A DNA stretch of 63,709 nt, the filler included, from Reclinomonas americana ATCC 50394 (lineage: Eukaryota), in NCBI GenBank assembly GCA_048213135.1. It is 11 parts of 8 records of this genome, joined end to end, with 100 filler letters (N's around TTAATTAATTAA, not from the genome) between each part and the next. Parts side by side here need not be neighbours in the genome. Positions count along the whole stretch, not along the records: positions 1 to 10,899 come from PS015720.1; positions 11,000 to 15,962 come from PS015721.1; positions 16,063 to 26,095 come from PS015722.1; positions 26,196 to 34,903 come from PS015723.1; positions 35,004 to 45,789 come from PS015724.1; positions 45,890 to 49,045 come from PS015724.1; positions 49,146 to 55,376 come from PS015725.1; positions 55,477 to 57,766 come from PS015725.1; 3 more parts are not named here. One strand, 5' to 3'. The stretch's first letter is position 1, and each line of letters begins with the position of its first letter. The position numbers and the translations under genes are program-made. Below the pieces are notes generated by a model. The model was not told the DNA's origin and searched no databases. It worked only from the letters and a program-made list of their open reading frames with translations. Shown here piece by piece: positions 1-60,598 of the stretch.

Positions 1-1309
1 GATGTTGTGCACCGACTGCGATGTGCACATTAGCTCGGAGAACACCGATGTGGTGGGCGGTGACTCCTCCATCGAGTACATCAACTCGGGCTTCTACTAT
101 GTGCGGCCGACGGCGCGCGGCGTAAAGTTGCTGGAGGAGGTGCTCGACGAGGCGCTGCTGCAGGTCGACTTCAACGATCAGGCGTCGTTCCAGAACGTGC
201 TGCACGGCAATGTGGTGCCCGGACTGCAGGCCGTCGGCATGGACGTGGTGCGTGTGTGTACAGCGCTATGCCATCCTTCTTGTGTTGTGCTGATCTAACA
301 TCTCGGAAACCGGCAGCTTAAAGTGCCGAACGGCATGGTGTACTTCCTCAAACGACTGCCGCAGCGCGAGCGAGTGACTCCCATGGTCATCCACAACAAC
401 TGGATCACCGGCAGTGCGGCCAAGGTGTACCGATTCAAGGAGAACCTCATGTGGCATTTGGGTTGCGGAGAGCGCTTGCACATACACACACACGCACGCA
501 TACTCGCTGCCTTTTCTCACCTTCTTTCCCCTTCACGACGCAGATGTGCCCGAGTACCACGAGACGAAAATGTATGTGACCTACACACACAATCTGCGCG
601 AGCTGTTCTCGTCGTGGAGTCGCGGCCGACGCACGGTCGATCGCTACTTTGACGAGTTCACCTATTTCAAGTTGTGTATGGCGTCCACCCAAGACAGGCG
701 ATTGCGTCGTGTTGTCACTCAGCGCGCCCCTCCGACAGAGAATCGCTACGATCGGCGTTTGCCGTGGCCCGCGTGCTGGATCGCACACTCATTTTGCCGC
801 GGTTCGAATGCTCGCGAATCTACGGGCACGACTCGTGCGACTTGGATGCCTTCTTCGCCGCCAATGTGCTGCTGAAGCGCGCCGACGTGCGGGAGCACTC
901 GTTCTTGGTGAACCCGCGTGTAGACAGTCAGGTGCGAGCCAGTGCTACGCCCAATGTGTGCATCGCGCGTCGGGACGAGCGAGGAGGCGAGTGGTGCGAC
1001 GTGGTACACAGTGCCGAGGCCACATTTCGACCGGCCGACGCCTCGGCTGGTGCGTGCATTTGTGTTTCATCTCTCCACTTCCACCACCATCCCCTCACGA
1101 TCACGTGCTTGTGCTGAGCAGGTGCCACGGATGCAGAGGTGCGACAGTGGTTCGGGCAGTCGACGCTGCGCGTGTTGCACTTTGACAGCATGTTTCGGCG
1201 ATTTCACAAGTTTGAGAAGGCCAGTGAGCAGGCCGACTTTGACGCGTGGTTCGAGACGGCCGTGCGGGAGATGAGATTACCGCACCTGAGTGACGACTCG
1301 TGGTCATGA
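1..1309 (+). CDS. Nucleotide-diphospho-sugar transferase (GT77 / RRA-XEG113-like glycosyltransferase), 5'-partial, multi-exon
   Basis: Motifs INSGFYYVRPT, NDQASFQNVL, IHNNWITGSAAKVYRFKE and ARVLDRTLILPRFEC join in frame across GT-AG introns; stop TGA at 1307-1309. Confidence 0.8.
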
Positions 1310-1370
1310 AGAAATAGTAATGTGTGACGAACGACATGCGTGTGCAAACACTGCTTCAAAAATCACTGCA

Positions 1371-4250
1371 TTATCTCTCATCACCGGTGCGCGCTCCCTT
1401 GCTGAAGTTTTGTACAACGTCACGCAACCGCACGTCGCCGGTGCGTTGCTTGCGTAGATTCGACGACACGTCGGCCAGTCTCTTGGCCAGCTCCTCGTCG
1501 GTGAGACCGTCGCGTTGTGCGAGCAGCAGCTGGTTCTCACGCTCGCTTCGCACCAGCCGGTCACGCAGGTCGCCAAGCTCCTGTTCCCGCTCACCAAGCG
1601 CCTCATCCAATTTGCGCCTCTCGCCCTCGCTGTCCGCCAGCTGTGCACGAGGTTGAGGGAGGGAAGAAACAGTCGGGAGGTCGGCAACACCTCGGCTCAC
1701 CTTGCGATTCAGCTCGCGAATGTCATTCTCCAACTTGGTAACCTTGGTGTTCGTCGCTCGGATAAAGTCCTCCGTGGATCTCTGCTCATGAGATCAGCAA
1801 CTAAACGTATGTGCGTACTACTGGACGCAAAAAGACACTGACCCTCGAGGTCTCCAGCGCCTTCAGATCGTCGGCAAGTCGCTTCTCCATCTCCGCCAAC
1901 AGTGTGTCCTTCTTGGCCAGTGCGTCCTTGGCCGAGCGAATGTCACGCGCCAGATCCAGCACTTGGCCCACCAGCAAGTCGCGCTCCGCGACCAAGTCGT
2001 TGTACATGGTATCCACCCTGTGACACACACACACACACACATATGAGTCTTCTGCTGTCAACGCTCAGCTGTCAACTGCACGCAACTTCTTATTTACAGC
2101 CTCCTGTACAACAGCCGTCTGCCGTTCGGCGGCCTCGCGGTCTCGAATAGCCGACGCCAGTTTCTCTTCTGCGGTCGCCAGTGCGTCACGCAGCCTTCCA
2201 ATCTCCAGTCGCGCCTCACGCTCCTGCACGTGTGGCATGAGTGACACATCCCAGCAGGCGCACACCCATCACACCAACGTAGACACCAACCTCATTCCGC
2301 ACAGCCTCCAGGTCAGCCTTGCGATCAGCGAGTTCTGCCTGCAGCGCCGACACACGATCGGTGAGCCGCCGTTGCTCCAACTCATGCTGCGCCTTCATGT
2401 TGTCCAACTCGTGCTCCAGCGTGGTCACCGCGTGCCGCTCCTCTTCCACCTGCCGCGACACCTTGTCAATCTCCTTGCGCAGCTCTCGGCCCTCGCTCAG
2501 CGACGCGTCCAACTCGTGCGACATGCGCTCATTGTCCGCACGGTTGGCCTTGAGCTCGGCTGCAACACACATTCAGTCAGTGGCCAGCCAACACAAACAA
2601 GTGCACGGCGCGATTTACGCAACTGGTGACCGAATCCAACTGCCGGCGCAGATCGTGGAGCGCACGGTCGGCGGATTCCAACTGCTGCTGTCGCTCGCGC
2701 AGCTGCTGCTTCAAAGCATGCACCTCGTCGTTGGTCTCATCGAGTTCGGCGCGAATCGCTTCGTACTGTGACTCGGAGCGCTCCTTCTCGTGACGCAGTG
2801 CGTCAATCTCCCGCGAGTACTCCTTCGCCTTCTTGTCCATCATCAGCATCTGCTGCTGCAGCGACGTGAGCGTCGACTCCATCCAGTCGCGCTGCGTTCG
2901 CGACTCGCTGTCCAAGTGACTCAGTGCCTCGCGCGACTTGGCCAGCGCCTCGGTGGTCGTCTGCGACACCTTGCCTGAGTGCACTCGCGACACACAAACC
3001 TCATTCACATCACCGCCAACACTGACCTTGTGCGCCAGTCGTACGTCCTCCAGTTCTCCACGCCAGGTGGCGGCCGACTGTTCGAGAAGTGCCAACACTC
3101 GATCGTACTGGCGACGCACGGCCTCCTGCTTCTCCTGCGACTCTGACAATGTGTGCTGCATCTCACGGGTCGTGGCGTCCGTGTGCTGTGTGCGCAATGT
3201 CAGTACGAACAAGATGACATGATCACCACAGACGCCAAGCCATTCGACGCAACATCGCGCATTTGACGAATCTGCTCGTGTGCAGCGCGCAGCTGTTCCG
3301 CCAGTGCGTCGCATCGCATCTCCGCATCGGTGTGCTGCCTCTGCTCGCGCTCAAGCTCCTCCTTTGCGCGATGACATGCGCTCTCCTGCAGACACACATG
3401 AGCACATCGAGATACCGATGCACAAAAAACACAGAGCGATGAACGAACCCACTGAGAGGCGGCACGGGTGAGCTCCGCGTTGCGTTCGCGCAGCTCCGTC
3501 GATTGCTGCACCACGCGCTGCACGTGCCTCTCTCCATCCTTTCGCTGCATCTCCAGCTCGCGCTCGTTCGTCTGCAACAACGCACGATCAGCAAACGCTG
3601 CCCTTCACCCCTCCTAACAACCAAGACGTCCCACCTCCAACTGCATGTGCATGCGATCCAGCTCGGCTCGCTGCAACTGATTGGAACCCTGCAGTTCCAT
3701 GAGTTGCGAGTGGACCTCGCTCAATCGTCGCGCGAGATCCTCCTCGGCTCGCGACCTTGCGTTAACAGTCTGCCACCCGCCATATAAGCAAGCCGGAAAT
3801 AGAAAGTCGTGGCAAACAAAAAAGCGACGGCATACACACCAAGTTCAGCGTCTGCGAATGAGCGCGGTGTTCGGCCTCGAGACGATCCAAATCGCCCGAC
3901 AAATCGACCAAGCGCTGCGATGATCTCCGCTGCAACTCGGCGAGATGGTCGGGCAGGCGACTTTGTTCGTGCTGCAAACACACACACAACAACACGTGAG
4001 TCACACACACCACGGATTGCAGCTCCTCTTCTCCCACTCAGCGCACCTGCATGCGTGCCAGCATCTCCGACGTCTTGGCACTCTCATCGCGCAGTGCACT
4101 CGTCTCCAACAGCAGCGTGTCGAAAAAGTGCAGCTGCGTGCGTGCAATGCGCACAAACTCGGCGCGCTCGCGTTCTCCAGCCGCATTCTCCTCGTTCAGC
4201 GCCTCCAAATGCTCGACACGCGCTTGCCTACGCGAACACACACCACGATG

Positions 4251-4291
<41 letters not shown>

Positions 4292-7200
4292 CGACATGAA
4301 AGTCGCAACTTTTGCTGCAGGTGCATGGTGGCCGACTCGTGCGCCTCGTGCAACCGCGACAGCTGAACAGTGGCCTCTTGCAGTCTGTGGCGCAAGTTGT
4401 GGTTCGAACGCAAGACCTGCCGCAGTGGCAGCATCAGGTCGCTCTCCACAAAGTCCTCCAGCCCAGTGGCCAGTCGACCCTCCTGTCCGGCAAACGCATT
4501 AATGTCGACACTGCGCACGCACACACCGTCAGCAGAACAATCCAGAAACAATCGAAGAGAGCAGGGAGGACGCACGCCGAGTCGGGCAAGTCGGCCGAAG
4601 TGGCCTCGTCCAGCGCCGAATTCTCTATCATGTGCGCCAGACAGAGGAGCGCACGACATGCCACCGCATGCTTCTTTTGCAGCGACGACAACCGCGAACC
4701 GTGATCGTCGTTGGACGCCAGAGCCTCCTCGTGAGCGCGCTCCAACGCCCGGTGTTGCACCACGAGATTGCGGTAGTCCTCGGCGAGTCGCTCGCGGTGT
4801 CCATCGAGCTTGCTCTCCAAGTACTCCTGGCTCTGCAACTGACTCTGCGCCGTGTCCAGCATGCGCTTCAGCGCGGCGATCTCTCTGCACACGACATTTG
4901 CGCGGTGAGTATCAGTGGAAAGAAAGGAGGCAGGCAATAAACGATTATCAAGGTACGCAACTGTGCGTGCTTGGTGTTCTCGTCGTGCAACAACTCGGTG
5001 AGGGCGTCGTTGTCGGCGCGCACACGCTTGAGGTCTGAGCATACGCGCAGATGGTCCGCCTGCACCGAGGTCAGCTGCTGCTGCATCTCCGAGAGCATCA
5101 ACGCCTGCTTCTGGCGATTCTCAAAGAACGACTTTTGACCCGAGAGCAAACGCTGCAACGGAAGAATGAAGCACTCTGTGAGTTGGTGCACCGCATACTA
5201 CTCACGGGCTGGTGAAGTGACGAAACCTCGTGCTCAATCTGCAGTTGCTCCAAGAAACGCACAGCATGCGCCTTCTCCTCTGTCGTCTGCGACACGGCAG
5301 CGTCCAGCTCGCTCACGCGATGCTGGCTTCGACCGAGCTCATTCTCCAATGATGACAGCACTTCTGCAAGCCAGCGCCAGACGCATATTAGCCGCACACG
5401 CACGTAGCAACAGAAGAAACAAACATAGCACAACGGCCTGACCTTGATCGCGCTTCTGCAGCGTGGTAAGCGCGTCCCACAGCATCTTGACTTGGCGCGC
5501 CAACGACTCGGTGCGATCACCCAACGACGAGTGCTCGCCCAGCAGACGACTTTGTGTGCGCGTAAGGTTGCCGATACGGTCACCGGCCGACTCGGCCTTG
5601 AGATCAAGCTCCTTGTCGAAACCTGATGCAGGCGTGTTAGCACTAGAGACACTGCCGATGCGCCAATCATGCGACGAAACTCTCTTGCAGCTCCATCAGT
5701 CGCTCCTCGTGCACCTGCGCCTGCATTTGCAACTCGCGCTCCAACGAATCAATGCGGTGCTCCAGCTCCACACGCAAGTGCTGGCAGGGAATGAATGAAA
5801 GGGGAAAGCACCGTGAGGACGACAAACGCGACGATGGTAACCAAACAGCAAGTCGGCAACGCACCTCCAGATCCGCCACACGAGCCTCCGACTCACGAAG
5901 TGATGCCTGGCAGTGAATCAAATCAGACTCCAGAGCACCGGTGCTTGCGCGCGCTTTGCGGTGGTCTCGTTGCACGCCTGGTTTCAAGCCAACACAGTGA
6001 ACATTTTTTCATCAGTGGAACGCACACACACGGGCGGCAACACGTCGACCGCACCTTCCACCTGACCCAGCAACTCCTCGTTCTCTGCCTCGAGCGCACT
6101 GAGCTCTCTCCGCAGCTTCTCCGACCGCTCCTTCAGCATGTCGTTTTCACGCGCCGCTCGTTCCATCGCCTCCTCCGACTGCACGAGCACGAATGGGAGA
6201 AATCAGACGACTGCCTGTCGCCCACGATTCTGTTGCACACGCGCGGATACTCGCTGCGTCTGCTCAAACAACTGTCGACTTCTACCGCTAACTCTCTGTC
6301 TGTCTCTCTGACGCACTCTGTATCATCACAGCAACAACGGGAGGGAGGCAAAGAAAGAGACCAAGAAAGAAGAAAGAGAAGAGAGAGCAACGAAGAAGGG
6401 CACAAAACCCGCAAGTCACGGACGTTTGCCAGCATCAGCTTGGTGTCGTGAGCAAAGTGCCGCGCCGCGCGCAGCTCCTCTCGTGTCTGCTCCAATTCTT
6501 GCACGGCCTATAACCGACGATTAGTTTACGAAAAAATGACAGGATGATCAACGAGCTGCGTGCGACTCACCTCTTCGAGCTCTGTCGTGTGCGCACGGAG
6601 TTGCTTGCTGTGATTCAAGGCCAACTCGGACATTTGCACGACCAGGTGATTCTTCTGCTTTCACCAAGAAATCAGCAATGGTGGGGGACGGAGGTGGATA
6701 CTCATGGCACTCACCTCGACCTCGCCGCCAGTCATGTGGATCGGAGAGCGCGACGACACGGGTGACATTGGCTCGCGGACACCGAGGTAAGTGAGTATCT
6801 GCACATTCGAAAGAAGGCACCAGACATTAGCTCCTTTCAAAAAACAGCAGAATACATCTCGGTATACACACCTCGGCGAGCTGAGCCTGTGCTGTCGCAA
6901 GAGCAGCGTCACGCAGTGCCAACTTGTGCTGCAGCGTGCGATTATCTTCCGCCAATGCCCGCCGCTCGTTCTCCGCCGCCGTCAGCTGCGTCACCTGGGA
7001 ACGCGCATCGGCAAGCGCCGAGTCGCGCAGCGCCAGTTGTGTCGTCAGCGTCTGATGTGCGTCCGACAGCTTCATCGTCTCCACTTCCAGCGACGTCAGC
7101 TCTGTTACACGCGCCTTATGGCTCGTGAGCTGGCTCTCCAGCAGTGCACGCGCTTGCTTCATGTGTGTCAGTTCGTCTGCCAGCGTCTCCTTCTCCAGAC

Positions 7201-10200
7201 GCAAGGCCGTCATCTGCAACGGCAATTGAACAGATCAGTACACAACGAGAGAGAAAGAGAGAGAGATTGGTGACAAACACAGCACTTCCACATACCGCTG
7301 ACAGCTGGCTGCGACACTCTTCGACATTCTTGCGTAGTGACACACCGCGCTCCTCGGCCGCATTACGACGCTCCTCTGACACGCTCAAGTCGTCGGCCAG
7401 TCGAGCGTTCTGTTCGCCCAGTCGCTGCACTTGCAACGAGGCGTCCTCCAGCGAGTTGGTCAACGTCACACACCGATGATCGAGCGACTCGAGCCGCTCC
7501 TCGGCAGCACGCAGCTCGCTCCGGAGACGAGTGATCTGCAGGCATTCGCGACATGCGTCAGCTATCCAGCAGGTGGGGACGCGAGAGAGAGCACGGACAA
7601 TGCAAACCTCATGATCGGCCTCACGAACATCGCCGCTGCTCTTGCGCACATCGCTCTCGGCGGCTTCCGCACGCCGGCGCGTCGACGTGAGTTCACTCAT
7701 GAGTTCATCGACGCGCAGATCCGTCTGCACAATCGGTCGGGCGCAGAGTGAGCCACACACACACTACGCTTCAAAAAAAAAAAGCGACACAATACGGACC
7801 TGGTGCGATCGCTCACGCCACTTGTCGAGCTCGATATCACGTGCCTTGACAGCAGCGTCCAGTTCCGCGGCACGTCGATGCAAATCCTCGCAGCGAGCTT
7901 GCAACTGTGGAAGCGCGCGAGGCACATTGTGCGTCAGACATCGTTGCGAGAAAAGTGTCAGTGCGAACATGCACCAAAAACCACTGACCTTGCCGTTGCT
8001 GTCAAACACTTCGGTCACTGCGTGCTGAATGCTCTCGGCGTTCTACAAGAGAGAGCGAGAAAGCAACATCAGCAGCGGTCAACACAGCAGGTGAGGTGAC
8101 GGCACGCAACTCGCTTGATGGAAGCACCGGCCGGCATGTACTGGTCGATAGCAGAGGCGATTTGTGCCAGGTCGGCCTCCAACGCCGCATTGGCCTCCTC
8201 CAGCGACTGAATGGCTTCGCCGTTCACGGAGGTCTCCTCATTGAGCCGATCGGTGAGAATCTGATTCTTGGTTTGTGCTTCGCGCAGGGCATTGTCGAGC
8301 TGCAGCAAGGGGAGATGAGCGAGTGGCCCTACTAATGTCGTGACAAGGGAGCCGATTCTCCCACATACCCTTTCGATTGACAAGCTGAATTCGCGATTGG
8401 TGGTCCGCACTTCCCTCAGCGAGCCGTCCAACTGCAGATATGTTGACGGTGAGGGATGAATGAAATTGTCTACTCGTGCACCGAGGGGACACACACATAC
8501 ACACCTCTAGACAGCGCGCTTCGGCATCTAATCTCGCTTGCTCAGTCGACCGCCACTTGGATTCCGTCTGTGTGCTTTCGCTGGTGAGCCACCAACACGC
8601 CAGTCGCCACAGCCAGAGAGACGAAACCAACGCACCCTTTCTAGCCTGTCCATGACATCCTCCCGCTCCCGCGAAATCTCGCGAACGCGCGACTCGACCT
8701 GCTCAATGTGCGACTCGGCCTGCGACAGCGCCGACTCCAAATCCGCCAGCTCACCCTCCAGCTGAATGATGCGTGAGTGACGAAGACGACATACTGATGG
8801 TAGAGTAATGAACGGTACCTCACGGCAATGATCCACCGTCCTTCGCAGTTCTGACTCGAGCCGATTGCGATCGGTGAGCACACGATCGAGTTCCTCCGAG
8901 GCCTGCACACACACACACATCCACCCCGGTTCAGTTTCACCGCACTTCTCTTGCTCCTCCCCGCACGAACACACAAACCTCACGTGAACGACCGACAGCA
9001 TTTGTGCGCGCGCTTTCCAGCTGCTGCAAGGCCTCTCGTGAATGGTGCAGCTCCTGCTCGATTTGCTTGTTGATGCGCGCCTGTTCAAATAGCCTCTCCT
9101 CACACTGCGCGCATACGGTGAGTGGCCAGAGGGGGAGGCAACAAACGCACAACCAACTTGCCTTTTCGAGCTTCGCAGCCAGGGTGCTGCGCGCCTCCTC
9201 GGCCTCGGCAAAGTCGCGCTCCAACTGCGACTTGGACTCGACCACTCGGGCAAACTCGTTCTGCAGCTGCGTCAGGCCCATCGACTTGGCTTGCACCAAC
9301 TGCCGCAATTCGTCGCGCGCCTGTTGCATCTCAGCATCGACCTGTGTCGCATTCTAGTGAGCACAACAGCAGCAGCACACGTGCTTGACGGAGAACTGAA
9401 AACACACACCTGCTTTTGCTGCGAGGCCAATTGTGCATTATCTTGTTCCGCTTGCAAAAGGCGATCCTCCGTCTGTGCGCACACGCAGAGCAGTGATCGC
9501 CACGCAAAGAAGAGAACCAAAGCCGCCACCATCATCATCGTTCGCGGGAGAGGAGCAGCAAGAAGGAGCAAGAGGGAAAGAGCGATGAACACGAATCTGT
9601 CTCTCTCTTTCTCGTCACTCTCTCTCTCTCTCACTCATTGTCTGCCTGCGCTGAATTCTCTGCTCCTACTACTGCGCGGGGCGGAACGCATGCGCTGCGG
9701 TGCAGTTTTGCATCGTAGCATGGATTCACACCAACCTGACGCATTTTCTTCTCCATGCGTTCAATCTCGTCCTGCTTGGCGTCTGTGATTCCACCCACGA
9801 GTGAGCAGCGCGCAGATTAACAAGAGTGGAGCACATGCCACATCGAAACACACCGCGCAGCTGGTTCATGGCATTGGTCAGCGACGAGTTCTCGTTTTGC
9901 ACCGTCAGCAGCTCCGACGTCAGCTCATTCTGCACACCACGCAGTTCCTCATTGTCGTTCTCCAGACTCTCAATCCGCCGACGCAGCTCCAGCACCTAAC
10001 AGCAGGCACAGTGAGTGCCAAGCGGCCACACCACGGCGCGAAACACCAACGCAACAGCCTCTTGGTGTCCAGGCGGAGGCGGTGGTCCACCGACGCCCGC
10101 CGCCGACGACGCAAACAGATGCTGCGGGAAGCCAAAATCTCCGCCATTGGCCAGCGGCAGCGGTGTCAACTCGGGCACTTGGATCGACAGCTGCGGCCGC

Positions 10201-10955: not shown

Positions 10956-11054
10956 NNNNNNNNNNNNNNNNNNNNNNNNNNNNNNNNNNNNNNNNNNNNC
11001 CCTTCTCCTCCCTCCCTTCCGTCTCCCGCCATTGCCTCACCACGTGCGTCGCAG

Positions 11055-11843: not shown

Positions 11844-13800
11844 GAACCGCACCCTGCAGTATTTCACGCTTCAGCTCCGACTCGTGCTCCGTGAGTCGCG
11901 TGACGTCCTCCCGCAGTCGTTCGACCTCGCGCCGCCGCTCCTCGAGACTCTTGCGGTACGTCTCGATCTTGGTGCGCGCCTCGGCGAGCTCCGACTGCAC
12001 ACCCCACGTCTGCAACAAGGAGAGGTGAGACAACGTGTGCTTGTTGGTACGGTGCGCCTCCACGCAACGTCGTCTGTCGCCTTTTTGGCCTCGCGCTCCA
12101 AGTTGCGCAGTTGCTCGCCATGCAACCGCTCCATGCGCTCCAGATCGTTTTCGTGTCGCTGTTGCGCGTCCTCCAACTGCTTCTCCACCAGGCGACATTG
12201 ATTGCGTTGCGATTCCAGCTGGCCGCGCAACTCGATCATCTGCGTCTCCATGGACTGCAGCTCGGCGCGGTGCTGGTTACGAATCTCGCGAATCTCATTG
12301 TCCTTGGCCTGCACGGCCGCACGGTGCCGGTCGCGGTCGTCCATCACCACCTTTTCCAGACGCAACACCTCTTGCTCGGCCTTGCCCAGCTTTTGTTCGT
12401 AGCGCCGTGAGACCGTATCGCGTTCCTCCGTGTTCTGCACCGAGACAATGGTTGGCACTGGTTCTCCCCCTCGCCTTTGTCTTTCTTGCACAGTGCATCA
12501 CTCACCTTGTCCACGGTCATTCGCAACTCCGCCAGCTGATCCTCCTTCAGCGCGACCGTATCGCTGAGCTCCAAGCGTACGGCGCGCAGCTCTTCCTCCG
12601 CCGCTCGCAGACGATCTCGCACGTCGGCCAGCTGCAACTCGGCCTGCTTGCGCTCCCGCTGCGCATCAAAGGCCGCCGAGTCGGCCTCGGAGACCTTGCG
12701 CCGCCACTCGTCCTCGCGCTGCAGCATCTCCTCACGCTCCGCCCGCATGGCGCGATCACGCTGGTCGACGACATCCTCCCACTTGAGGGTGATTTCTCGA
12801 CGCGCCACATCAATCGCCTCCCGACTCTCACGCTCCATGCGCTTGGCGTCGGCCCGCATACGCTCAATCTCGCCCATCAAGCGGCGCAACTCGGCGTCCT
12901 TGCGCGTACGCACCTCCTCCAGTTGATCCTGCACGGTGGCCACGCGCTCCTGGTACTCGGTCTCGATCATGCCCATGCGGCCGCGTTCCTTGTTGGTGGC
13001 GTCGCCAGCGTCGCTCAGCTGAATGCGCAGCTCCGAGATCTCCTTGTCGCTGCGGTGCGCGGTGAGGAAGAGAGGGACGAGAAGGGGATGATGGAGAGAG
13101 CATGGGAGAGAGAGACAGTGCCGAGACGACTTCTTCTCTCGCGAGGCAGGCATCGGGTTTCGGAAATTACAGGGAACAAGTTTTGCGGGAGGGCTACAAG
13201 AGGGAGAGCGCCGAGAAGAGTGCTCTTTCTCTTCTCCGCAAATGCGAGCACAAGAAGACAGAAGGAGCGCCAATGCCGAGTAGCGTGCGGATGCTGTACT
13301 CTGCATTTTCTCGCAATCGGAAGAGCACAAGGACAAGAACCACATGCGTTCACATGAACATCAAGCAGGTGAAGAAAGAAGGAGTGCCACCGATGCAGAT
13401 GCTGTACTCTGCATTCTCGCGCAATCGGGAGAGCACAAGGACAAGAACCACCAGCGATCACATGAACAGCGAGCAGGTGAAGAAAGAAGGAGTGCAAGAG
13501 AGGGAGCACCAAGAGAGCAGGAGAATGGGAATGGAAACAAGCTGCTCCCTCTCTCTCTCCCTGTCTCTTTTCTCGCACTCACCGATCAACAATGACCGCC
13601 TGCAGCTGCTGCACAGTGACATCCATCTGCGCAAGGTCCTCATCGCGCTGCTTGATGAGCGTGAGGTTGTAAAAAAAGTCCTCCTTCACCTCGGCATACA
13701 GCTGTTGCAAGGAGGCAATCTGCGAGGGGGGAGGGAGGGGGGAGGACGAGGGTGTAAATGAGAGAGATAGGAAGAAGGCAAGAGTGAGAGTGGGAGAGCA

Positions 13801-16136: not shown

Positions 16137-18634
16137 TTCAACCTCTTCGAATGCCCCACCTGTCCACCCCACAAGAACCAGCTCGACAATGTGTGGAAAC
16201 TGTACGTGAACAAACTCAATGGCTCCTACTTTTGCCATCGCTGTGGCACCCGTGGCTCGTGGTGGAACTTTAAGCAGCTCTACAACTCTGGCATCTCAAT
16301 CACGGACTGGAAAGGTCTCGTCAGTCGCGCTCGCGCACACACACACACTTGTCGCTTCACTAACCCTCGTTGTTGTCTTCTTGTTGTCAACCACAGGCGC
16401 CACACCCGACGCACAGAAGCCCATTTACCCCGACGAATCCACAGTCTCTCTCTACCCGGCGGCGCTGCAGTCGGTACTTTCCTCCCTCCTTCTCCCTCTC
16501 TCTCCCTCTCTCCTTCCCTCGCCCACCCTTGCTGACACAGAACCCCGACGTACTTCAACGTCTCGCCGACGAGCGCCGAGTGACCGCTCAAACTCTCGAC
16601 TTTTATCGCGTCGGCCTCGCCACCTACTCCTTCATGGACGACAAGGAGCGCAAGTGGGTGGAGCACGAGTGTCTCACCTTCCCGTGGATGGAACGCACGC
16701 GCCGCGGCTCCGACAAGTGGCGCACGATTCGGTTGAAGGTGCGCTCGCTGCTGCGCAAGGCATTCATGCGACTGGATCCGGCGGGCGGATCGTGGGGTCT
16801 CTTTGGGTGGCACACGGTGCCGGACGACGCCACGCAGCTGGTGCTCACCGAGGGCGAATTCGACGCGCTCGCAGTGTACCAGGCGACCGGAATGCCGGCC
16901 GTGTCGCTCCCCAACGGGTGTCGATCGCTGCCGCTCGAGCTCATCAAGCAGCTGGAGCGTTTTGACCGCATCTACTTGTGGATGGACGACGATGTGCCGG
17001 GGCAAGAAGGAGCAGTGCAGTTTGCGCAAAAGGTGAAGTGCGACTGAGAGAGAGAAAGAGTGAGTAGTAGATGTGGTCTCATTCGAGTGCGAGCAGCTGG
17101 GTCTGGAGCGCTGCTTCATTGTGCACGCCAAGGGCGACCAACCGGATGGACCGAAAGATGCTTGTGAGGCGCTGGTGCGCGGTCTCGACTTGTCGGAGCG
17201 GCTTCGTCAGGCGGCTCGCATCCCGCACCAGGCAATTCTCACCTTTGCCGATCTGAAAGCGGTGCGTGATGTGCTGCGGATGGGGAGAGGGGCAGCGAGT
17301 GAGAGAGGCATCGAGCAAGGTGTCGTACTGGTATCGTGTTGCTTTCCGCCTCATTCACCGCGGCATCGCTGCTACAGGACGTGTTGCGGGAGATTCTGAA
17401 TCCGGATCAGGTGGCTGGCGTGCAGAGTATGCATCTGCCGACGTTGAATGCCATTCTCAAGGTAACATTCCCCTCTCTTTACGACGCTGATTGCGTGTCG
17501 AGCAACTCATCCGCCGTCGCGCTCTCGCACAGGGTCACCGAAGTGGCGAACTCACCATTCTGACGGGTCCCACCGGCATCGGCAAGACGACCATTCTCTC
17601 GCAGATGTCGCTCGACTATGCATCGCAGGGTGTACGCACACTGTGGGGATCGTTTGAGATCAAGTTGCGCTGGTGTGCGTTCTGTGCATGATGTGCGTTG
17701 CAGTGTGCTGACACGCGTCCAACAGAAACACTCGACTGGCGCGCACGATGATGACGCAGTTTGCTGCGGAACCACTGGGACCGGCGAACTTTGAGGAGTG
17801 GGCCTCTCGTTTCTCCGAGGTGCCGATGTACTACCTCAAGTTCTTTGGCAGTACCGATGTGGACAAGGTTGGTCGGGCGTGTGATGATCTTGCACTTTGT
17901 TTCTTGCTATCTTTTGCACCCGTCTTCCATTCCCTATCTCTTTCCCATCTCCTCACCCTCCCCCTCCCTCCCCGCAGGTTCTCGACGCCCTCGAGTACGC
18001 GGCCTACGCCTACGACGTGCGCCATGTCGTCATCGACAACATCCAGTTCATGACCAGTGGGCAGGCGTACGGCGCCGACAAGTTCGACATGATGGACCGC
18101 GCCATTGACAAGTTTCGCAATTTTGCCTCCTCCCGCAACGTGCACGTCACGCTGGTGATCCACCCGCGGAAAGTCGACGACGAGGAACGCCTGGGCGTCA
18201 GCTCGGTGTTTGGCACGGCCAAGGCGACACAGGAGGCCGACAATATCATTATCGTGCAGCGAGGCACTGCGTTTAGGTGAGCCTTCCACGCGCTGTTGTC
18301 GCGCCTCTTTCGTGCTCAACACCCTTCGTCGCGCAGATACCTGGAGGTGAAGAAGAATCGCTTCGACGGTGAACTCGGTCGCATTCCGTTCCTCTTCGAC
18401 AAGGCCACGTCGAAGATCTACGAACTGTCGTCAGAGGAGCAGCGACAGCTGGAGGCGCAGTACCAGCAGCAGTTGCAGGAGAGTGGCGAGTCGTCGCCCA
18501 GATCGTCGTCGTCGTCGTCGTCGTCAATGTCGTGGTCGAATCGCTCGTCGGGTGGTCGTGGCACGCGACGCAAGTACGCGTCGTCGCCCGGCAGTGCATC
18601 GCCCGGTGGCGGCGAGGGCACACTAATGACGTGA
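16137..18634 (+). CDS. TWNK: Twinkle mitochondrial primase-helicase (T7 gp4-like), multi-exon
   Basis: Zn motif CPTC...[21 protein letters not shown] and WMDDD, Walker [56 protein letters not shown]. Confidence 0.95.
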
Positions 18635-29335: not shown

Positions 29336-31013
29336 ATGTCTCGTCCGGATTCTCCGGCCTCTTTCCACTCGGCGCCTGATCGTCCGCCGGCTCGTGACGC
29401 CGCCAGTGTGCCGCCGCTCGTGTCAGTTGCGTGGCAACAGTGACAAGCCTCAAGCGATTTCCCCGCCCGCTCACTCACAATGCTTACGTCATCAGCAGGC
29501 GGAGCAAGCTCGCGCACGACCGCTGCAGCCGTTGTATCGCCCACCGAGCTCTGCCTCGTATCACAGCTCCCGGTCGTTCCCCGAGTTCGCCATGCCTCCG
29601 ACGCCGCCGCCCATGCGGTCTGAGGCGGTCGTGAACCGACCGGCTGCGCCAAGTTGAGTTGTCTCTGCTCCCTCTGCTGTCTGGGCAGAATGAGCTCACT
29701 CTTGTGTGACTTTCACAGCTCCCGACGCGACCCCGACCAAGCTCCCTCCGTCGGATTCCCCACCGGACGACCGTGGCCACGACAGACGACGCCGTGGTGG
29801 CGGTGGCGATGGTCGTCGTGGTCGAGCAGGTGGTGCCGGTGGTGGAGCGCGAGGTTCTGGCGGCGGCGCCGTTGTGCCCGTACGCAACGCCGCCAACAAC
29901 TACAACAACGTTCCCGGTCGCGAGTTGATTCCGCGCGATCCGAGTCCCGAAGTCGTGCAGGTGCGTGTGTTCGGATAGTCGTGACAGGTGTTTTCCTCTC
30001 AGCTCATCACGTCTCTCGCAGCGTTCCTACGGCTCCTCGCCAACGTGGAACGATGCCGATCGCCGACAGGTCGCGCGACGCGACTATCCGTACGGCGGAG
30101 ACTGGGCGCTGTCGGCCATGGACGACGTGGAGCGCGTCGGTCAGTCCATGATGCAACGCATGCACAGCACCATGGAGAGTTGCGTGCAAAGGACTGCGTG
30201 TGTGAGTCTCAATGCATTGTCTCACTGTCTCTCTCGCAATCGCTGCCGCACAGACATGTTCACCAACATGCAGCGTGCATTCGCCGACGTGAACCTCGGC
30301 TATCCGGACGCACTGTGGGACTCCATGGCGCCGAGTCGCGAACCGCTGCGCATGCAGGCCAGTTCGCCGTCGAAGCCCTTGCGGTGCTTCACGACCACAC
30401 GTACCACGCGCGGCACTGGAGGGGTGTGTGTGCATGCGCGGTGTGATGCGAGCGCTGAACCTGTGGCAGTGTGCTCACTGTCGTTGTGTGCGCGCAGGTG
30501 ATTGAGACGGAGCGCATCAGCAAGGACTATGAGGCAGGCACAGAGCAGCGAGTTGCGTGGCCTACCAAAGTGCCTTTGTCAATCGATATAGTGCTGACGC
30601 TGTGCTGCACAGTGGGTGAAGCGCGAGGCGAACGGAGCGGCGCACACAGTGGTGAGTGAAACGCTGAGGAATTCGCCAGTTAGACAACAGGTGTGCTTAC
30701 TGACCGGTTCGTGAACAGGGCTACGTTCGCGATGCAAGCGGGCGCGACGAGACCATTGACTACGTGGAGAACATGGACGAAGGTTTGCTTGCCACCTTGT
30801 CTGCCTAGAAAGACTCTCTCCTGTCTTTTTCTGACGTCGCGTGCAGCCCATCGAACCCAATTCGACGACGCCTGGAACGCCACGTACGAGCACTCGCTGC
30901 CGGCTTGGAGCCGGCGCAACCACCCCGAGTACCGCGCTCTGCAGCAGCAGACATTGCCGCCCTCCGTCATGCGCCTGCCGGCCATCACCGCCAGCGCCAG
31001 CGGACGCCGTTGA
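29336..31013 (+). CDS. Myeloid leukemia factor (MLF)-like protein with a Pro-rich N-terminus
   Basis: Spliced C-terminal region TTRTTRGTGGVIETERISKDYEAGTEQRWVKRE...GAAHTV...DETIDYVENMDE...TQFDDAW parallels the MLF domain pattern (GG.KET...D...G.E...AH......F...W). Confidence 0.7.
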
Positions 31014-46934: not shown

Positions 46935-47580
46935 GTCACCTGAACACTATCGAGGTGGCGGTGGTGGCGGCGGTGGAGGTGGAGGTGGCCGCCCGTTCTT
47001 CTCCGAGCGCGAACCGCATCCAAGCGTGGCCATTACGGGAGTGGAGCAGTGGGTGTCGGAGGATCAAGTTGCGCGCACGAGAGCTCTCTCTTGTTTGTAA
47101 GCTTGCGTGAGTGCTGATTCGTTCTCGTGTTTCGTCGCAGCTCGGACAGGCGCTGGCGGCTGCAGGCTATCCGCCGGTGCGTGTGGTCATCAAGGCGGCG
47201 CGTGATCCAACGCGCTCTGCCGGTCTGTGTGTGGCCTTTGCCGAGTTTGACAGCATTGAGTCGTCGACGGCCGTGCTTGACTTTTTCCAGTTGCGTGTGC
47301 TCTCGTTTGCTTTGCTGCTCGGCAACAACCGGCTAACATCGTGACTCTTGCGTGCAGCGGCGTCCTCTACGTGCGTGACCCAAGTGGCGACTCGTGCCGA
47401 GGTTTGCAATGTTTGCGCTCGTGTCTCTCCTGTGCTGGCACTGATTTGTTTGACCTGTGCAGCTCGCCTCGACTACTACGAAGACCGAGGCAGTGGCGGT
47501 CCTGGCGGCCCCAGTCGGCCAAACAATGCCTCCGACGAGCTGCTGGTCCGTGGCCTCGCGCCATACGTGACCGACGAAAG
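46935..47580 (+). CDS. RBM5/RBM10-like RNA-binding protein, RRM1 and start of RRM2
   Basis: SVAITGVEQWVSEDQ...CVAFAEFDSIESS...ARLDY; ASDELLVRGLAPYVTDES. Confidence 0.75.
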
Positions 47581-49041: not shown

Positions 49042-49354
49042 CTGCNNNNNNNNNNNNNNNNNNNNNNNNNNNNNNNNNNNNNNNNNNNNTTAATTAATTA
49101 ANNNNNNNNNNNNNNNNNNNNNNNNNNNNNNNNNNNNNNNNNNNNGGTGGAGTACAACGCCGAGGAGAACATCAGGCACAGAGTGGCCACTCCCAGCAGA
49201 GTCACTGCATAAGTGAACAGCGCCGATGCGCGCTGCGCAAACGTGTGCATGGCGAAGGGAGTGAGAGGCGAAGGACAGCTGCTGCTGGACTTTGTACACT
49301 CTTTTTTCTCTCATGCGACGTTGCTTTTGTTTGTTTTTTTCTCCCTCCTCGTGC

Positions 49355-52300
49355 TTAGACGCAGGCGGCGACCGAAGTGGAGCCTTGTCCGGCGGTGGTC
49401 TTGCCTGCTGGGCACGGTGTGCACACCGGTGACCCTGGAGCGTCCGAGTACTGGCCAATGGGGCAGTTGACGCACGAGGTCTGGCCGCTGAGCGACTGGT
49501 ACTTGCCCTTGGGGCAACTCGCACACGCTCCACCGCCTGTGGTATCTGTGTGTGTGCATATGTGTGTGCAAGTGAATACGGGGCCACGAGGAGGAGAGGG
49601 GCGTCGAGGGGGGCGCACATTCTCCAGGCTGGCAATTGTAGCAAGCGTCTCTCCGGAAGGCCGACGTCTGACCGTTGGTGCACGTGGCGCACGATGTGGC
49701 GGGCACGAGTGCATTCCATGTGCCAGGCACACAGTTCAGGCACTGACGACCGCCGTTGCCGTACGTGCCTGCACGCATGCACAGGAGGGCGGTGAGGCGG
49801 GCCATACACACACAAAACATGAGCGGCGATGAGGCGCACCATTCACGCATTGCTCGAGACGCCCGTCGCGACATGACGAGTTGGTGGGGCACTTGGTGCA
49901 CACGCCATTGTTGTTGTACTCGTCGGCTTTGCACGGTGATCCGACTCCGTTGACACACACCTGGACGAGAAACATGGTCAGGTCAGGGAAATGCGACGCT
50001 TCCTCTCACGCTCTCGATCCTACACCCTCAACCATCGCCTCGCAATCTACTCACCCAGCCCGACGGACACGTGGCGCACGTCGACTGGCCGCCGAACGAG
50101 TGCATGCCGGCGATGGCACAACTGTACCGCTGCGAAGCCGAGCACGCCGACGCCAATTCGCACCAGTGACAAGTGCCGCGGCGCTTCACCTCATAATAGT
50201 AGCCAGGCTGGCAGGAACACGCAACTGCGCAAAGAAGACAGGAAGTCACGGGTTAAACACTCCTCTTTCTGTCACGCGCAGAGATGCAGACACGCAACTG
50301 GTCGGATTGGCCACGATTTCGACGTCGTCAAAGAGCACAGCGCCCGATGTGAAGCCCGACAGCGTGAGCGTCAGCTGCACCGACGTGATACTGCCGGTGG
50401 TCATGGTCAAGTCGTAGCTGAGCGACTGCCACACACCGACCTGACCAGCCGCCGTGTTGAAGGCGAGTTGTTGAGTGGATCCTGCGTTAGGGGAGGAGGC
50501 GAGGGTGAGGCACAGGTCGGAATCCCGAGGAGAGAGGGTACTGCCAACAACAAGCCGCCTGACAAAACCTACACCCCAGCATGCTTCTCTTCTCTTCTTT
50601 CCCCTCCCTTTGCCCTCTCGCCAAACCTGGTGTTATGACCGCAGTCATGCGCCAGTTGCCAGCGCCAACCAGTGCCGTACGCATGTATCCCTTGACGCGC
50701 ACACGGAAGTTGACGGCGTTGGTCTCCTGCACCGTAATGGTCTGCGTCGCCGAGTTGGTGCCACCGTTGCCGTCCATGCGCAGGAAGGGCGCGGTGCCGG
50801 TGCCGGCCGCGTTGCTGTCGATCACGTACGAGCCTGACGAGAGCGTCCATCGCTCCAGTGCGTTGGTGGCTCCCTGCGTGAACTCGGGCCACAGCATGTT
50901 GCCATTCAGCACCCAGCCTCCACCAATGGCATTGATGGCCGCTGCGGATGCATGAGGAAACCAAAGAGACGGCAGAGTGCGACATTCTCTCTCACACACA
51001 CACACACCGTAGTTTGCACTCGCACATGACACGCACTGCGAGTAGCCAACCAGCGAGTACTGATTCGCTGCGCAGGCTGTGCACGCCGACGCTCCTGAGC
51101 CGCTGTATGTGGAAGCCGGACAGCGCTGGCACACGGAGAACGAGGATCCGCCAGCGGTGGTGCTGTACGTGCCAGGAATGCAGGGGACGCATTGTGTGAG
51201 GCCAGTCTGGCCCCAGGTGCCGGCCGCACATCCAGTGCACTGGTTGACATTGGTGAGGCCCGGAGCACCACCAAATGTGCCCGGTGGACAGCCGACTGCG
51301 CATCATGAGCGTGAGTATGAAGCGCAAGAAAAGGTACGCCGCCGAGCAGACGACGCAACTGCAACTGGCCACACTCTGAGCGTTTGTGCCCGGGAAGTAT
51401 GTGCCTTGTGGACACTGCGCCGTCAATCACGAGTGAAATTTTAGAAGCCGCTGCGACGCAAAGTGTCGATTGCGGGACGGACGCAACATTGATACACGAC
51501 GACTGTCCGGTCTGGTCTTGGTATTGGCCTGCGGGGCACACCGTGCAACTCGTCTGACCCAGCAAATTCTGTGCACCCATCGCAGTACGTCAGCATCCAT
51601 CAGTGAATTATCGTGCTCGAGTGCGCTCACCTGGAATGTGCCCTTGGCGCAGGCGACACAGGAGGAGAGTAGGGACTGGCCGCTCAGCGTCGATAACATG
51701 GAGGTACCGGCTGCGCAGCGAAAGAGGAGGTAAGTGGGTGAAGCAGCGGCATAGTTCGCAAGTGAGGAATACCTGGGCACTGGATGCAAGACGTGGACTG
51801 CGAGTTTGGTTGATATCTGCAACCAGAACACAAGAGGTGAGGCCAGCGGAATTGCAAGGCGATGAGCAAACGGCAAGAAGGACGCACGTTCCCGCGATAC
51901 AATTCAGACAAGAACCGGCTCCACCCTGCACCAAAAAAATCGAGAATTCTTTTCAGAAGACATGTCGCCCACCAACTCATTCCACAGCAGTGCAACAAAC
52001 CGCGGCCTTGTAGGTGCCCGGATTGCAAGGCGTACAAGATGCGGCACTCGCACCACTGCAAGGGACACGGTGCATGTCAGCTGTGGCGAGGCACACGGTT
52101 GGCAACACAGTGATAACTCACCTATAGGTGCCAGCTGCGCAGGACTGGCAGGCGGCCGTGTTGGGTGCACCGAACGAGCCGGCAGTGCATGCCGTGCAGG
52201 TGCTGCTGCCGGCCACGGACACGGCACCAGTCTGCGCACAGAGCCACCGAGTGAGTTTCACATCACGAACTACTGAGACGCATGCGTAGTGGTACTGTGC

Positions 52301-54171
52301 GCACCGGGCAAGCCAAGCAGTCGCTGGCCAGGGTGCGGCCGGTCAGGGTGCTGGAGCGACAGTGAGCACTCAGTGCATTCACAAGGGGTTCACATTGCAC
52401 GCAACTTAAAAGTTCCGATCGGGCACTGTGTGCACGTCGCAGATCCCGTCACGGCGGCGTACGTGCCGGCCAAGCACGACTGGCAGACACTGATGGAGGT
52501 CGCATTGAGCTGCGCACATCGGGGTGAGGGTGAGACGTGTGTTGCAACAGACGGGGCGCGGCAAGCGCATGCTGTACGCAACCGCTTGACTCGCTGTACC
52601 GAGTGGACAGTTCCTGTTGCCAGCGCGTCAACAAAGGTGAGAAAAAATGTTCATCTCACACACGCACACACAGACGGCTTGCGCAACGAGCACGAGGCCA
52701 ACGAAGTGCCACCAGCGGCGGTTGCATAGGTGCCTGCCGGGCAGCTGATGCATGTCGCCTGACCGGCACCATTGGTGTAGAATCCCTGCGCGCAAGTGGT
52801 GCACGAATATGCGCCTGTGTAGCACGCACGACACGCAGATGAGTTACGTGATGACACTCGGGAAGGAGTTTACGAATAACAGTCGCACCAATGGCAGAAA
52901 TGCTTCCGGCAGCGCAATTGGAGCACTGTGACGTGCAGCAATAGCAATCGAGTGAGTGGATGTTGCGTTAGAATGGATGGGCACACGATCATTCACCGTG
53001 GAGTCACCAGCTGCGGAAAACTGGCCCGCCGGGCACGTTGGTCGGCTGTAGTCAGTCACTACGACACAGTGCGGTGAGTCGCAACGATTTACGATCGTGC
53101 GTTTCTGGTGACAGAGTGAGCGCAACTCCACGTGTCCGAGAGCGACTGGTACTGGTCTTCGCCGCCATGAACCCACACGGTGTTGTTGAACACAAACATG
53201 CCGAAATTGCGACGCACACCAATGGCCGTCGGGTTGCTGATGGATGGTGTGTACCAGCGATTCAACACATTGTCGTACTCGATCGGTGACGCTGCAGGAC
53301 GGACACATCAGTGGCACGAGTGAGAGTAACAAGAGAGGGGAGTTGCGCAACTGAGGTAATTGGGAAACGTCGATCGATAACCGCCGAAAACGAACATGCG
53401 ATTGCCCTGCACCACGGCCTTGTGACTGGCACGACCGGCCGGTGGGCTCGCTGCAACAATATGGATATTGAGAAGCGAATACGCAAGGAAGGGGAACGGA
53501 AACGCATGCACGCAACAGGCATTGTTGATGGTCGTCCATCCGCCGGGAACTGCGCAACACATACTTTAGGCAACCCTCTCTCACACACACACAGAGGACA
53601 ACGGATACGATTCCGCAACTGCAGTAGCTCATCAGGGTAGAGTACACGGTGTAGACGACCGAGGTTGACACCGTGTTACCGCCAAACACATACATGCACG
53701 TGCCGAGCCACACGGCCGAGTGGTAGGCGGTGGCTTGTGGCCCTGCTGCGAGTGAAGTCCACGTCTTGGTCGCTGTGCGCTACAGTGAGTCGCGATCGCA
53801 GCACCAAGCCTGTCACAATATGCGCTTGCTCAACTGAAATCAAACGAGTACAGGTCGCTGAGGAGACTCAGATCGGCAGCTGCGCCACCGTACAGATAGC
53901 CGAGATTGTTGTTCGGATTCAACACAAACGTGGCGCCCTCCCTGATTGGCGGAGTCGAGCCACTCGTCGTGATGGGTCCCACCCAGGGTCCGTTGGCGCC
54001 GGCGGGATTGCCTGCACGATATCACACGCATGAGCGGGTGGCTGGCACGCGAGAGCGAGCAACGACACGCAACGATACTGCCACAGATCGTTCAAATACG
54101 CTGCGCCACTGTAGCCGCCGAAAATGTACATGGTGCCGTCGGGCGCGATCACGGCGCTGTGATCCACTCGA
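49355..54171 (-). CDS. Kelch-repeat + GCC2/GCC3 (ephrin-receptor-like) Cys-rich repeat extracellular protein, with an internal CBM-like beta-sandwich
   Basis: HSAVIAPDGTMYIFGGYSG, HKAVVQGNRMFVFGGY; many CxxCPxGx[YF] repeats; an NGNMLWPEF...WQSLSYD...VLFDDVEI domain; stop at 49355. Confidence 0.8.
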
Positions 54172-57766: not shown

Positions 57767-57999
57767 NNNNNNNNNNNNNNNNNNNNNNNNNNNNNNNNNN
57801 NNNNNNNNNNTTAATTAATTAANNNNNNNNNNNNNNNNNNNNNNNNNNNNNNNNNNNNNNNNNNNNGTCGTCGTCGTCGTCGTCGTCTCGTCGTCGTTGT
57901 TGTGTCGTCGTCGTCGTACGTAGTACGTCGTCGTTCGTTCGTTCGTCGTCCGTTCCTCCTTCCGTTCGTTCGTTCGTTCGTCGTCGTCGTCGTCGTCTC

Positions 58000-59502: not shown

Positions 59503-59623
59503 CAGCAGTTCTAAGTTTATCTGCTGCCACATCCGCCCACCTTTTTCTCTGCTCTCGTTCTGTGGCAATAAAATAGCGTCTCCCCGCTCCAAACAACAAC
59601 AAACTGAACAAAAAACAACACCA

Positions 59624-60598
59624 TCACAACGACAACGAACAATGCGCGCCACCCGTCTCACTGTCGTGGGAGTGCCGACGAGCCGCCATTGGCCGCCTTT
59701 GCGCCACGTGGTCCATCAATGCCGTGGCGAGCAGGATAGACGGCGATTTTGATTGTGTGACGCTGCGTGGGTGCCACCGCTCCCTGTGCGCCGACAGAAA
59801 ATAGTGCGTGTCAGCATTTTGTGACAGCAAGGTGGAGAAGTGGCATTGTCGCAACTCGTTTCCTTTGCTCGGGGGCGGGACTCGCAGGGCAACTCGAGCT
59901 GCGGCCTCGCGACCTCGCGGTGCTGGGGATCGATCCGGGAGCCCACTCGTAGCCTGCGCGTGAACAAGTGAGCGATGGGGCATGCTGCCAGAGAGGAGCA
60001 AAAGGTGACAGAAATCAACCCCTAAACAACCAGCGTCCCTCTTTTTCCCCCACACCCACCTGGCGGCAGTTTCCGACTCGCATACATGTCCATCAACTTG
60101 CTACCGGAGTACTCGGCGATCAGCGGATCCGGCGGTGCCTTGGCGGACCGCGTCTCGGAGCTGGCGCGCAGTCTCCTCATGTCATCTTGCAGGCGATGGA
60201 GACCCGGGCGAGCTGCACGAGAAAAAACGTAAGATCACAGCGCGCACACACACAAAATCACCCTGCCACTCTTGTCGCACCTGGCTCCTCCCACGGCTCA
60301 AAGGTGCCGAACTCGGAGCGCACCGCCTGGTTGTGCAGCGCTTGCTTCAGCTTGGGGCCATTCTTCATGATAAAATCGTGCAGTAATGATCCACCCTCTG
60401 CAGCGCGGCGGCGAAAAGTGAGCAGGTGGCATACAGTAACACTAATCCCCCTCGTCGACACGCAACTGTCTGTCCTGGCGGTGGTGAAAGAATGAGACGA
60501 GCGTGCCGACAATGATCCCGACGGAGGCGCTGCTGCTGCCGCTGCCCCGTTTCCGTTCTCATCCCCACTTGGTGTTCGGGCACGAGCGCTCTGCGGTC
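59624..60598 (-). CDS. Hypothetical protein, 3' exons
   Basis: Exons GGSLLHDFIMKNGPKLKQAL... and ARPGLHRLQDDMRRL... with GT-AG introns. Confidence 0.5.

Follow-up and report, generated by a model that had tools for sequence, protein, structure and literature searches.

Does the genome of Reclinomonas americana use, beside an ordinary donor of the AG/GTGCGT type, a second 5' splice-site class in which the same signal is displaced by one base? The question is raised by the hexamer GTTGCG in a joined stretch of 63,709 nucleotides from strain ATCC 50394 (assembly GCA_048213135.1), hereafter the window, for which a sequence-only reading had proposed A/GTTGCGT, the slash marking the cut, as a major donor type. 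The analysis favours GT-AG introns cut before GTTGCG, with U1 small nuclear RNA (snRNA) read one base out of register, a reading to which we give a probability of about 0.6. The class exists, is frequent and has an exon context of its own; the cut site at 17664 is confirmed as judged by homology; and a shifted U1 register is the best mechanistic reading that we infer from the pairing pattern.

GTTGCG occurs 89 times on the two strands of the window, against 57.81 ± 6.78 expected from dinucleotide shuffles, none of 100 shuffles reaching the observed count. A branch-plus-YAG module lies 40-130 nt downstream of 43 of the 84 scorable GTTGCG sites, compared with 2161 of 7231 for all GT dinucleotides (p = 3.5e-5). 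All 26 GTTGCG coordinates listed in the sequence-only reading were found on the strands as given.

Donor use was assessed with a gene parser based on dynamic programming. It required a frame free of stops, scored codon log-odds, applied a length prior and recognised the 3' end by a rough signal, YAG with a CTVAY motif no more than 50 nt away; at the donor it asked for GT alone, and each run of N was handled as a border. A first parser with one codon table mixed up the strands in coiled-coil genes and was replaced by one with tables seeded from Pfam-supported open reading frames (ORFs) and 3'-signal scoring, then two codon classes; ORF openness by itself is non-discriminating in the GC-rich DNA of the window. 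This donor-blind parse gave 30 gene models with 111 introns, among which GTTGCG was the commonest donor hexamer (18/111), followed by GTGAGT (6), GTGTGT (5) and GTGCGT (4). Together with the enrichment, this ranking bears out the proposal that GTTGCG is a real and frequent donor type.

Because the parse is blind to positions +3 to +6, counts of GTTGCH and GTVGCG serve as internal controls. The parse used 18 of the 89 GTTGCG sites as donors, against 1 of 149 GTTGCH sites (H being A, C or T; p = 8e-8) and 1 of 194 GTVGCG sites (GTAGCG, GTCGCG and GTGGCG; p = 3.5e-9). Within gene spans the hexamer is found 52 times in sense and 16 times in antisense orientation (p = 1.4e-5). As negative controls, models antisense to the kept genes contained no GTTGCG donor in 43 introns, and the reversed sequence contained none in 6 introns.

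Two donor classes emerge from expectation-maximisation (EM), in which the donor was treated as a latent choice among the in-frame GTs within 45 nt (111 introns, mean 2.6 candidates) and described by K position matrices. The log-likelihood was 134.3 for K = 1, 236.5 for K = 2 and 272.5 for K = 3. The unsupervised classes at K = 2 were gAG/GTG.GT (62%) and ..a/GTTGCGT (38%); K = 3 adds a class with a GT-repeat pattern, which is probably made of misplaced donors. A filtered set, restricted to introns of 45-130 nt with a branch motif, YAG and a posterior of at least 0.8, kept 69 of 109 introns, comprising 37 canonical donors (+5 G), 20 shifted donors (+3 T, +6 G, no +5 G) and 12 others. The shifted donors consist of 13 GTTGCGT, 2 GTTGCGC, 1 GTTGCGG, 2 GTTTCGT, 1 GTTACGT and 1 GTTGAGC. 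GTTGCG accounts for 16% of donors in the donor-blind parse (18/111) and 21% in the learned-donor-model (mixture) parse (29/141); the shifted class makes up 29% of the filtered set, a share that is partly circular because the two-class model chose among in-frame GTs.

The shifted donors carry +4 G in 17, +5 C in 19 and +7 T in 16 of 20 cases, and the canonical donors +3 G in 23, +4 C in 14 and +6 T in 25 of 37. The shifted class is thus narrower than a displaced canonical spectrum, given the near-fixed +5 C and the rarity of GTTGAGT and GTTGTGT, which had been put forward as related donors.

Some further features of the donors were observed. T at +3 is frequent, too, in donors that keep +5 G after AG, at 8 of the 37 canonical donors. 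A few donors with the shifted spacing have T or A at +4 where G is usual, as in GTTTCGT at 5226 and 5680 and GTTACGT at 41238. In the filtered set, where numbers are small, the exon that follows starts with T after 7 of 20 shifted and 3 of 37 canonical introns, and with G after 3 of 20 and 14 of 37, respectively. Donors with +3 T and +5 G include the following.

2290, 9735, 17868: AG/GTTGGT donors
8978, 9146, 43923: GTTTGT donors

The exon side separates the classes. In the filtered set, 12 of 20 shifted donors but none of the 37 canonical ones have A at -1 (p = 1.8e-7), and G takes that position in 2 of 20 and 34 of 37, respectively (p = 7e-10); canonical donors carry A at -2 in 18 of 37 cases. 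The claim that GTTGCG mostly follows A, and canonical donors G, is upheld by these counts and by the listed GTTGCG sites, 20 of 26 of which have A at -1. Of all GTTGCG sites, 32 are donors in some parse or have homology support, and 19 of these have -1 A, against 17 of the 57 unused (p = 0.008). Comparison of the shifted with the canonical matrix gave the smallest mean column distance at an offset of +1 (0.257), against 0.535 at 0, 0.603 at -1 and 0.756 at +2; on columns free of the class definition, the distance was 0.225 at +1 and 0.622 at 0. The description of A/GTTGCGT as AG/GTGCGT displaced by one base agrees with this best fit. The exon-side consensus is displaced in step with the proposed helix, -1 taking the A usual at -2, and +1 G taking the place of the usual -1 G.

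Scored on the standard U1 5' end printed in PMC4856993, which may differ from the U1 of this organism, the shifted class makes more pairs when displaced by one base (6.55) or with +3 bulged (6.70) than in the canonical register (4.25), whereas the canonical class makes 7.43 pairs in the canonical and 4.76 in the shifted register. Under the favoured reading, these would be spliceosomal introns of the ordinary GT-AG kind, 55-85 nt long, which have a CTSAY branch site, end in CAG and are cut just before the G, and the normal lineage signal (C/A)AG/GTGCGT would be read one base out of register. In A/GUUGCGU, the exonic A and the intronic G would take over the positions normally held by -2 A and -1 G; the first U would be a mismatch retained just because catalysis needs GU; and UGCGU would fill the usual +2 to +6 places, with +3 T partnering U1 A7 and -1 A partnering U10. 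U1 would pair one base shifted, and the later steps, involving U6, U5 and Prp8, would still pick GU.

Roca and Krainer reportedly described a one-base shifted U1 register at mammalian 5' splice sites in 2009, and a bulge +2/+3 register is said to have followed from Roca et al. in 2012. As in the mammalian shifted register, the cut here would stay at GU while each U1 pair slides by one position; AG would be mimicked by the exonic A together with +1 G, and +6 G and +7 U would stand for +5 G and +6 U. In mammals, however, shifted and bulged registers are regarded as rare tolerated exceptions; the class described here forms 16-29% of modelled introns, compared with well under 1% in humans, and its consensus is built on GUGCGU instead of GUAAGU, with a near-fixed +5 C. 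Validated non-canonical registers together amount to ~1.5% of human 5' splice sites according to the available portion of Tan et al. 2016 (PMC4856993). The shifted and bulged registers themselves are already established for human sites, and the new element is the frequency.

The alternative that survives best is a bulged U (+2/+3), in which U1 would pair with +1 G and +2 U, one U would bulge, and GCGU would pair as +3 to +6. The class resembles human bulge +2/+3 sites in that GUU comes first and the remaining consensus lags by one base, with an equal number of pairs (6.70 against 6.55), and that register has been validated in human cells, with 68 predicted sites, 54 after curation, in the part of PMC4856993 available. 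A bulge keeps the exon helix, however, and would lead one to expect -1 G, the base seen in just 2 of 20 shifted donors, with A in 12, as against G in 34 of 37 canonical ones; it should also accept bases other than T, but just 1 of 194 GTVGCG sites serves as a donor, compared with 18 of 89 for GTTGCG. The preference for -1 A over G and the strict need for T also set the class apart from the bulge +2/+3 sites. The shifted register is favoured because -1 A replaces G and the extra base must be T, and the bulge is considered unlikely.

Next in standing, and similarly doubtful, is a dedicated or altered snRNA, whether a second U1, a changed U1 5' end or a changed U6 ACAGAGA box, that would pair contiguously with AGUUGCGU. 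In its favour, the free positions (+4 G, +5 C and +7 T, counted above) vary less in the shifted class than in the canonical class, no register gives it strong pairing with standard U1 (-1.9 kcal/mol), and the C at canonical +4 or shifted +5 does not pair with standard U1. The weak duplexes and the near-fixed +5 C therefore leave room for a variant U1 or U6, and a variant snRNA was also raised for the GTGCGTG donors of Ostreococcus in the available text of Irimia and Roy (PMC2483917). In the window, Rfam detected no snRNA genes at gathering thresholds, and none at a relaxed E <= 1, where just weak microRNA (miRNA)-like or small nucleolar RNA (snoRNA)-like matches appeared. As far as is known, almost all eukaryotes share a conserved U1 5' end, which counts against an altered snRNA. 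Besides variant U1 or U6, the sequence-only reading had suggested altered U1C, LUC7 or Prp8 as possible causes.

A wider proposal may be entertained tentatively. It holds that two parallel 5' codes might operate on one major spliceosome, AG/GUGCGU and a tight, one-base-offset A/GUUGCGU serving a fifth or more of introns, the latter being read by a second U1 whose 5' end matches it, or by a spliceosome in which evolved U1 and U6 contacts tolerate an additional nucleotide behind GU.

The position of the cut can be examined closely in one intron.

17664..17725, plus strand: Twinkle intron, 62 nt, donor A/GTTGCGCT; the sole shifted-class intron confirmed at residue level

Over its full length, the upstream exon (17533-17663) matches human Twinkle residues 404-446 (7t8b_A), and the downstream exon, from 17727, begins at Twinkle residue 448. 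The junction leaves room for exactly one residue, corresponding to the split codon AA/A, and two solved Twinkle sequences fit best with the cut directly before the G of 17664. Three splice variants (GT17664, GC17667 and GT17679) were compared by tblastn with 38 Twinkle-encoding metagenome loci; the GT17664 variant had the top score and one gap fewer in all 28 loci where each variant gave an alignment across the junction, and two more loci align with this variant only. Cleavage before the G, which had been said to be required by the reading frame, is borne out at 17664, the one testable site, by the PDB alignments and the 28 loci; beyond it, cut-site support consists of frame consistency in the gene parses. 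The single-matrix and mixture parses preferred GT17679 at this intron, inserting five false residues. The metagenome loci show at most 73% identity in the best exon, and inter-exon gaps in 7 of them carry ordinary donors (GTGAG, GTAAG, GTGGT, GTATG) where visible; not being close relatives, these loci are uninformative on donors in this lineage. Homologues were found neither for the junction exon 739-1049 nor for 47141-47289.

The same comparison bears on a GC donor three bases downstream (AGTT/GCGT...), which would keep the frame and add one codon. Such a donor is always frame-compatible, so open reading frames alone do not tell against it, but GC17667 scored lower and needed one more gap in all 28 loci, the PDB alignments leave one residue only, and a GC donor would leave the constant GTT unexplained, GTVGCG being used at 1 of 194 sites. 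We regard it as very improbable.

No better placed is an artefact or chance origin, in which GTTGCG would be a common word cut out by the models or by eye, or the second GT of GTTGCGT would be the true donor. The gene models were built for this analysis from 64 kb of training sequence, and the second GT, at +6, is present in 16 of the 20 shifted donors. The parse was, however, blind to the donor motif, and its controls were clean (0/43 antisense, 0/6 reversed). The second GT was rejected as a general donor, a frame-compatible AG being found within 12 nt of the acceptor in just 4 of 16 cases; it is absent from four shifted donors and from 17664, where Twinkle homology backs the first GT.

Least credible is a recently spread intron family (an introner-like element) or a tandem exon-intron duplication carrying one donor, for although each blade of a kelch propeller described below is one exon ending in a phase-1 shifted donor, and 9 of the 20 shifted donors lie in that locus, the other 11 lie outside it in at least 5 gene models, and intron interiors are no more alike within the class (mean local alignment 7.67 shifted-shifted, 7.98 canonical-canonical, 7.82 shifted-canonical and 6.95 shuffled). 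If the kelch introns are old duplicates, the donor was kept while the interiors diverged, which argues for selection on the donor.

Several points, besides the circularity noted for the 29% share, weigh against the shifted-register reading or its generality. All junctions except 17664 rest on gene models built from 64 kb, and these are imperfect, having missed 17664 and picked donors inside GT repeats. Nine of the 20 shifted donors fall in two adjacent gene models of one kelch and Ephrin_rec_like locus, so the counts are not independent if the exon-intron units there are duplicates, as they may be; the other 11 are spread over at least five other gene models. The class share comes from this window of ~11 contigs and may not be genome-wide. 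A plain shift leaves an excess of C unexplained, since C is nearly fixed at +5 of the shifted donors (19 of 20) but not at +4 of the canonical ones (14 of 37). Pair counts do not separate the shifted (6.55) from the bulged (6.70) register, and predicted duplexes with standard U1 are weak, averaging -1.9 for the shifted and -6.8 kcal/mol for the canonical class.

GT/CA microsatellites were observed within introns (4228-4309 on the minus strand, 1990-2040 and others), where they mislead donor choice.

The individual sites of the sequence-only reading fared unevenly. Among all 30, comprising the GTTGCG sites and four related donors, 13 are donors in the donor-blind parse, 14 after EM refinement, 11 in the filtered set and 21 in the learned two-class parse, with 23 in at least one parse. 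Site 17664 was picked by no parse, its support coming from homology alone. In total, 24 of the 30 have some support, and 32110, 32537, 32630, 29653, 59855 and 55678 have none. The plus strand at 32.0-33.0 kb, which covers 32110, 32537 and 32630, does not look coding, and the putative intron at 32537 would end 3 nt upstream of the putative donor at 32630. Site 59855 looks intron-like by eye (branch GCTGAC, then CAG, 72 nt) and lies in a stretch outside the gene models. The plus strand had been assigned correctly to GTTGAGT at 29653 and GTTGTGT at 671 and 32537, but wrongly to GTTGAGT at 55678, which is on the minus strand. Site 4309 is ambiguous, adjoining a GT repeat, with parses alternating between GTTGCG and the GTs of the repeat. 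Shifted-class donors that had not been listed are as follows.

3253, 12068, 22013, 29426, 53126, 54073, 60818: GTTGCG
53834: GTTGAGC
5226 and 5680: GTTTCGT
41238: GTTACGT

The shifted donors are carried by the following genes and introns.

51977..54170, minus strand: kelch-propeller part of a kelch and Ephrin_rec_like gene, with Pfam kelch and Ephrin_rec_like matches on exons
54073, 53834, 53619, 53351, 53126, 52405, minus strand: shifted donors of the kelch part; 52582 in the mixture parse only
49146..51580, minus strand: Ephrin_rec_like repeat region, in the same gene or one adjoining it, with Pfam matches on exons; donors 51487, 51359 and 50298
1371..9538, minus strand: long coiled-coil gene or genes with ~30 introns, in the donor-blind and EM parses
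2086, 2623, 3253, 4961, 5226, 5680, 8110, minus strand: shifted donors of the coiled-coil gene or genes
462..543, plus strand: intron of the first plus-strand gene, 82 nt, donor G/GTTGCGGA, donor-blind; the sole frame-compatible GT
12010..12068, minus strand: intron of a coiled-coil gene, 59 nt, donor C/GTTGCGTGG, donor-blind, EM posterior 1.0; not previously listed
30552..30612, plus strand: intron, 61 nt, donor A/GTTGCGTGG, donor-blind, EM posterior 1.0
47068..47357, plus strand: RRM-like gene with donors 47068 and 47290, in the learned-donor-model parse only
60753..60818, minus strand: intron, 66 nt, donor C/GTTGCGTTT, EM posterior 1.0, the only candidate donor; not previously listed

In the donor-blind parse, GTTGCG or GTTGAG donors start 6 of the 11 introns of the kelch part, and GTTGCG donors 3 of the 9 introns of the Ephrin_rec_like part, amounting to 9 of 20 introns over the whole locus. 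The propeller is built of blades that are each one exon ending in a phase-1 shifted donor, and phase 1 is over-represented in the shifted class as a whole (11/20), chiefly through this gene. Protein searches with the kelch/ephrin exons returned 8 distant matches at 29-45% identity, and exact protein matches to four single-exon ORFs of the window were sought and not found. By eye, a hydrophobic C-terminal stretch of the gene at 49146-54170 resembles a membrane anchor. The coiled-coil region at 1371..9538 shows a single uniform coiled-coil reading frame through all exons. The likeness to RRM at 47068..47357 was noted by eye, with neither a Pfam match nor a homologue.

The window has a base composition of ~55% G+C and is very intron-rich; one gene of roughly 1,800 codons carries ~30 introns. 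The introns are short (median 67-69 nt), with a CTSAY branch motif ~16-18 nt from the CAG 3' end. Ten identical 100-nt blocks, each made of 44 N, TTAATTAATTAA and a further 44 N, act as six-frame-stop linkers; the window is therefore a chain of ~11 small contigs and not one continuous locus, and the order and orientation of the contigs along it need not be real. The linkers and the recognisable genes are listed below.

10900-10999, 15963-16062, 26096-26195, 34904-35003, 45790-45889: linker blocks 1-5
49046-49145, 55377-55476, 57767-57866, 60599-60698, 62387-62486: linker blocks 6-10
16634-18634, plus strand: Twinkle helicase-primase
18737-19366, minus strand: PEX11
37.6-38.2 kb, plus strand: RCC1 repeat
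49.1-54.2 kb, minus strand: kelch-propeller and Ephrin_rec_like repeat gene, Pfam matches on exons
62488-63705, minus strand: Prp8 fragment with an intein, matching human PRP8 1189-1317

The Hint-domain intein of the Prp8 fragment begins directly after ...PPVVFY. Minus-strand ORFs of at least 35 aa between 57.8 and 62.4 kb contain no C-terminal half of Prp8, and the truncation is an assembly matter, because the fragment stops at a contig linker within the intein. The GTTGCG site at 59855 falls outside Prp8. Inteins in Prp8 are recorded from fungi, Amoebozoa, choanoflagellates, Chlorophyta and one apusozoan in the available portion of PMC5784728.

Two side observations concern other parts of the window. 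Hairpin-forming stretches at 14033-14134, 55003-55167 and 61918-62283 gave weak, sub-threshold matches to several miRNA-precursor models (E 0.0007 to 0.9) and are probably inverted repeats. An intron-less ORF at 33755-34300 on the minus strand holds three copies of a cysteine-rich repeat of ~60 residues with a proline run between; by eye its motif reads LGNGNCCG.YSG..C....PF, and it has no Pfam match.

Minority donor classes are familiar from other systems. Like GC-AG and U12-type introns, the shifted class is a minority with a tight consensus of its own beside a major class. Unlike GC-AG introns, its donors start with GT, the GC17667 variant being worse in 28 of 28 loci. The donors bear no likeness to the U12-type motif. 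Ostreococcus lucimarinus offers a closer comparison, having strict GTGCGTG donors in an intron-poor genome according to the available part of Irimia and Roy 2008 (PMC2483917); on that basis, it appears to share with the window short introns, a branch site of the CTGAC type and an unusual canonical core, GTGCGT, whose +4 base is C. It appears to differ in being intron-poor with one rigid donor, whereas the window is very intron-rich and has two donor classes, and GTT donors are not mentioned in the available portion of that paper. Diplonemid splice sites, given as G/GTATG in the available text of PMC12621601, differ from the GTTGCG pattern. No account of a GTTGCG or GUUGCG donor class came up in full-text literature searches using terms for splicing, protists, U1 and registers, the broad searches covering top-ranked matches only.

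For the biology of this organism, a tight GTTGCGT class with weak standard-U1 pairing makes a testable prediction about its U1 and U6 genes. In practical terms, gene prediction from a single donor matrix would put an appreciable fraction of the exon ends of this genome in the wrong place. If true, the finding would represent the first non-canonical U1 register fixed as a genome-wide intron class, and would provide a natural experiment on the uncoupling of U1 pairing, U6 pairing and cleavage-site choice, and on the evolution of the 5' splice-site code.

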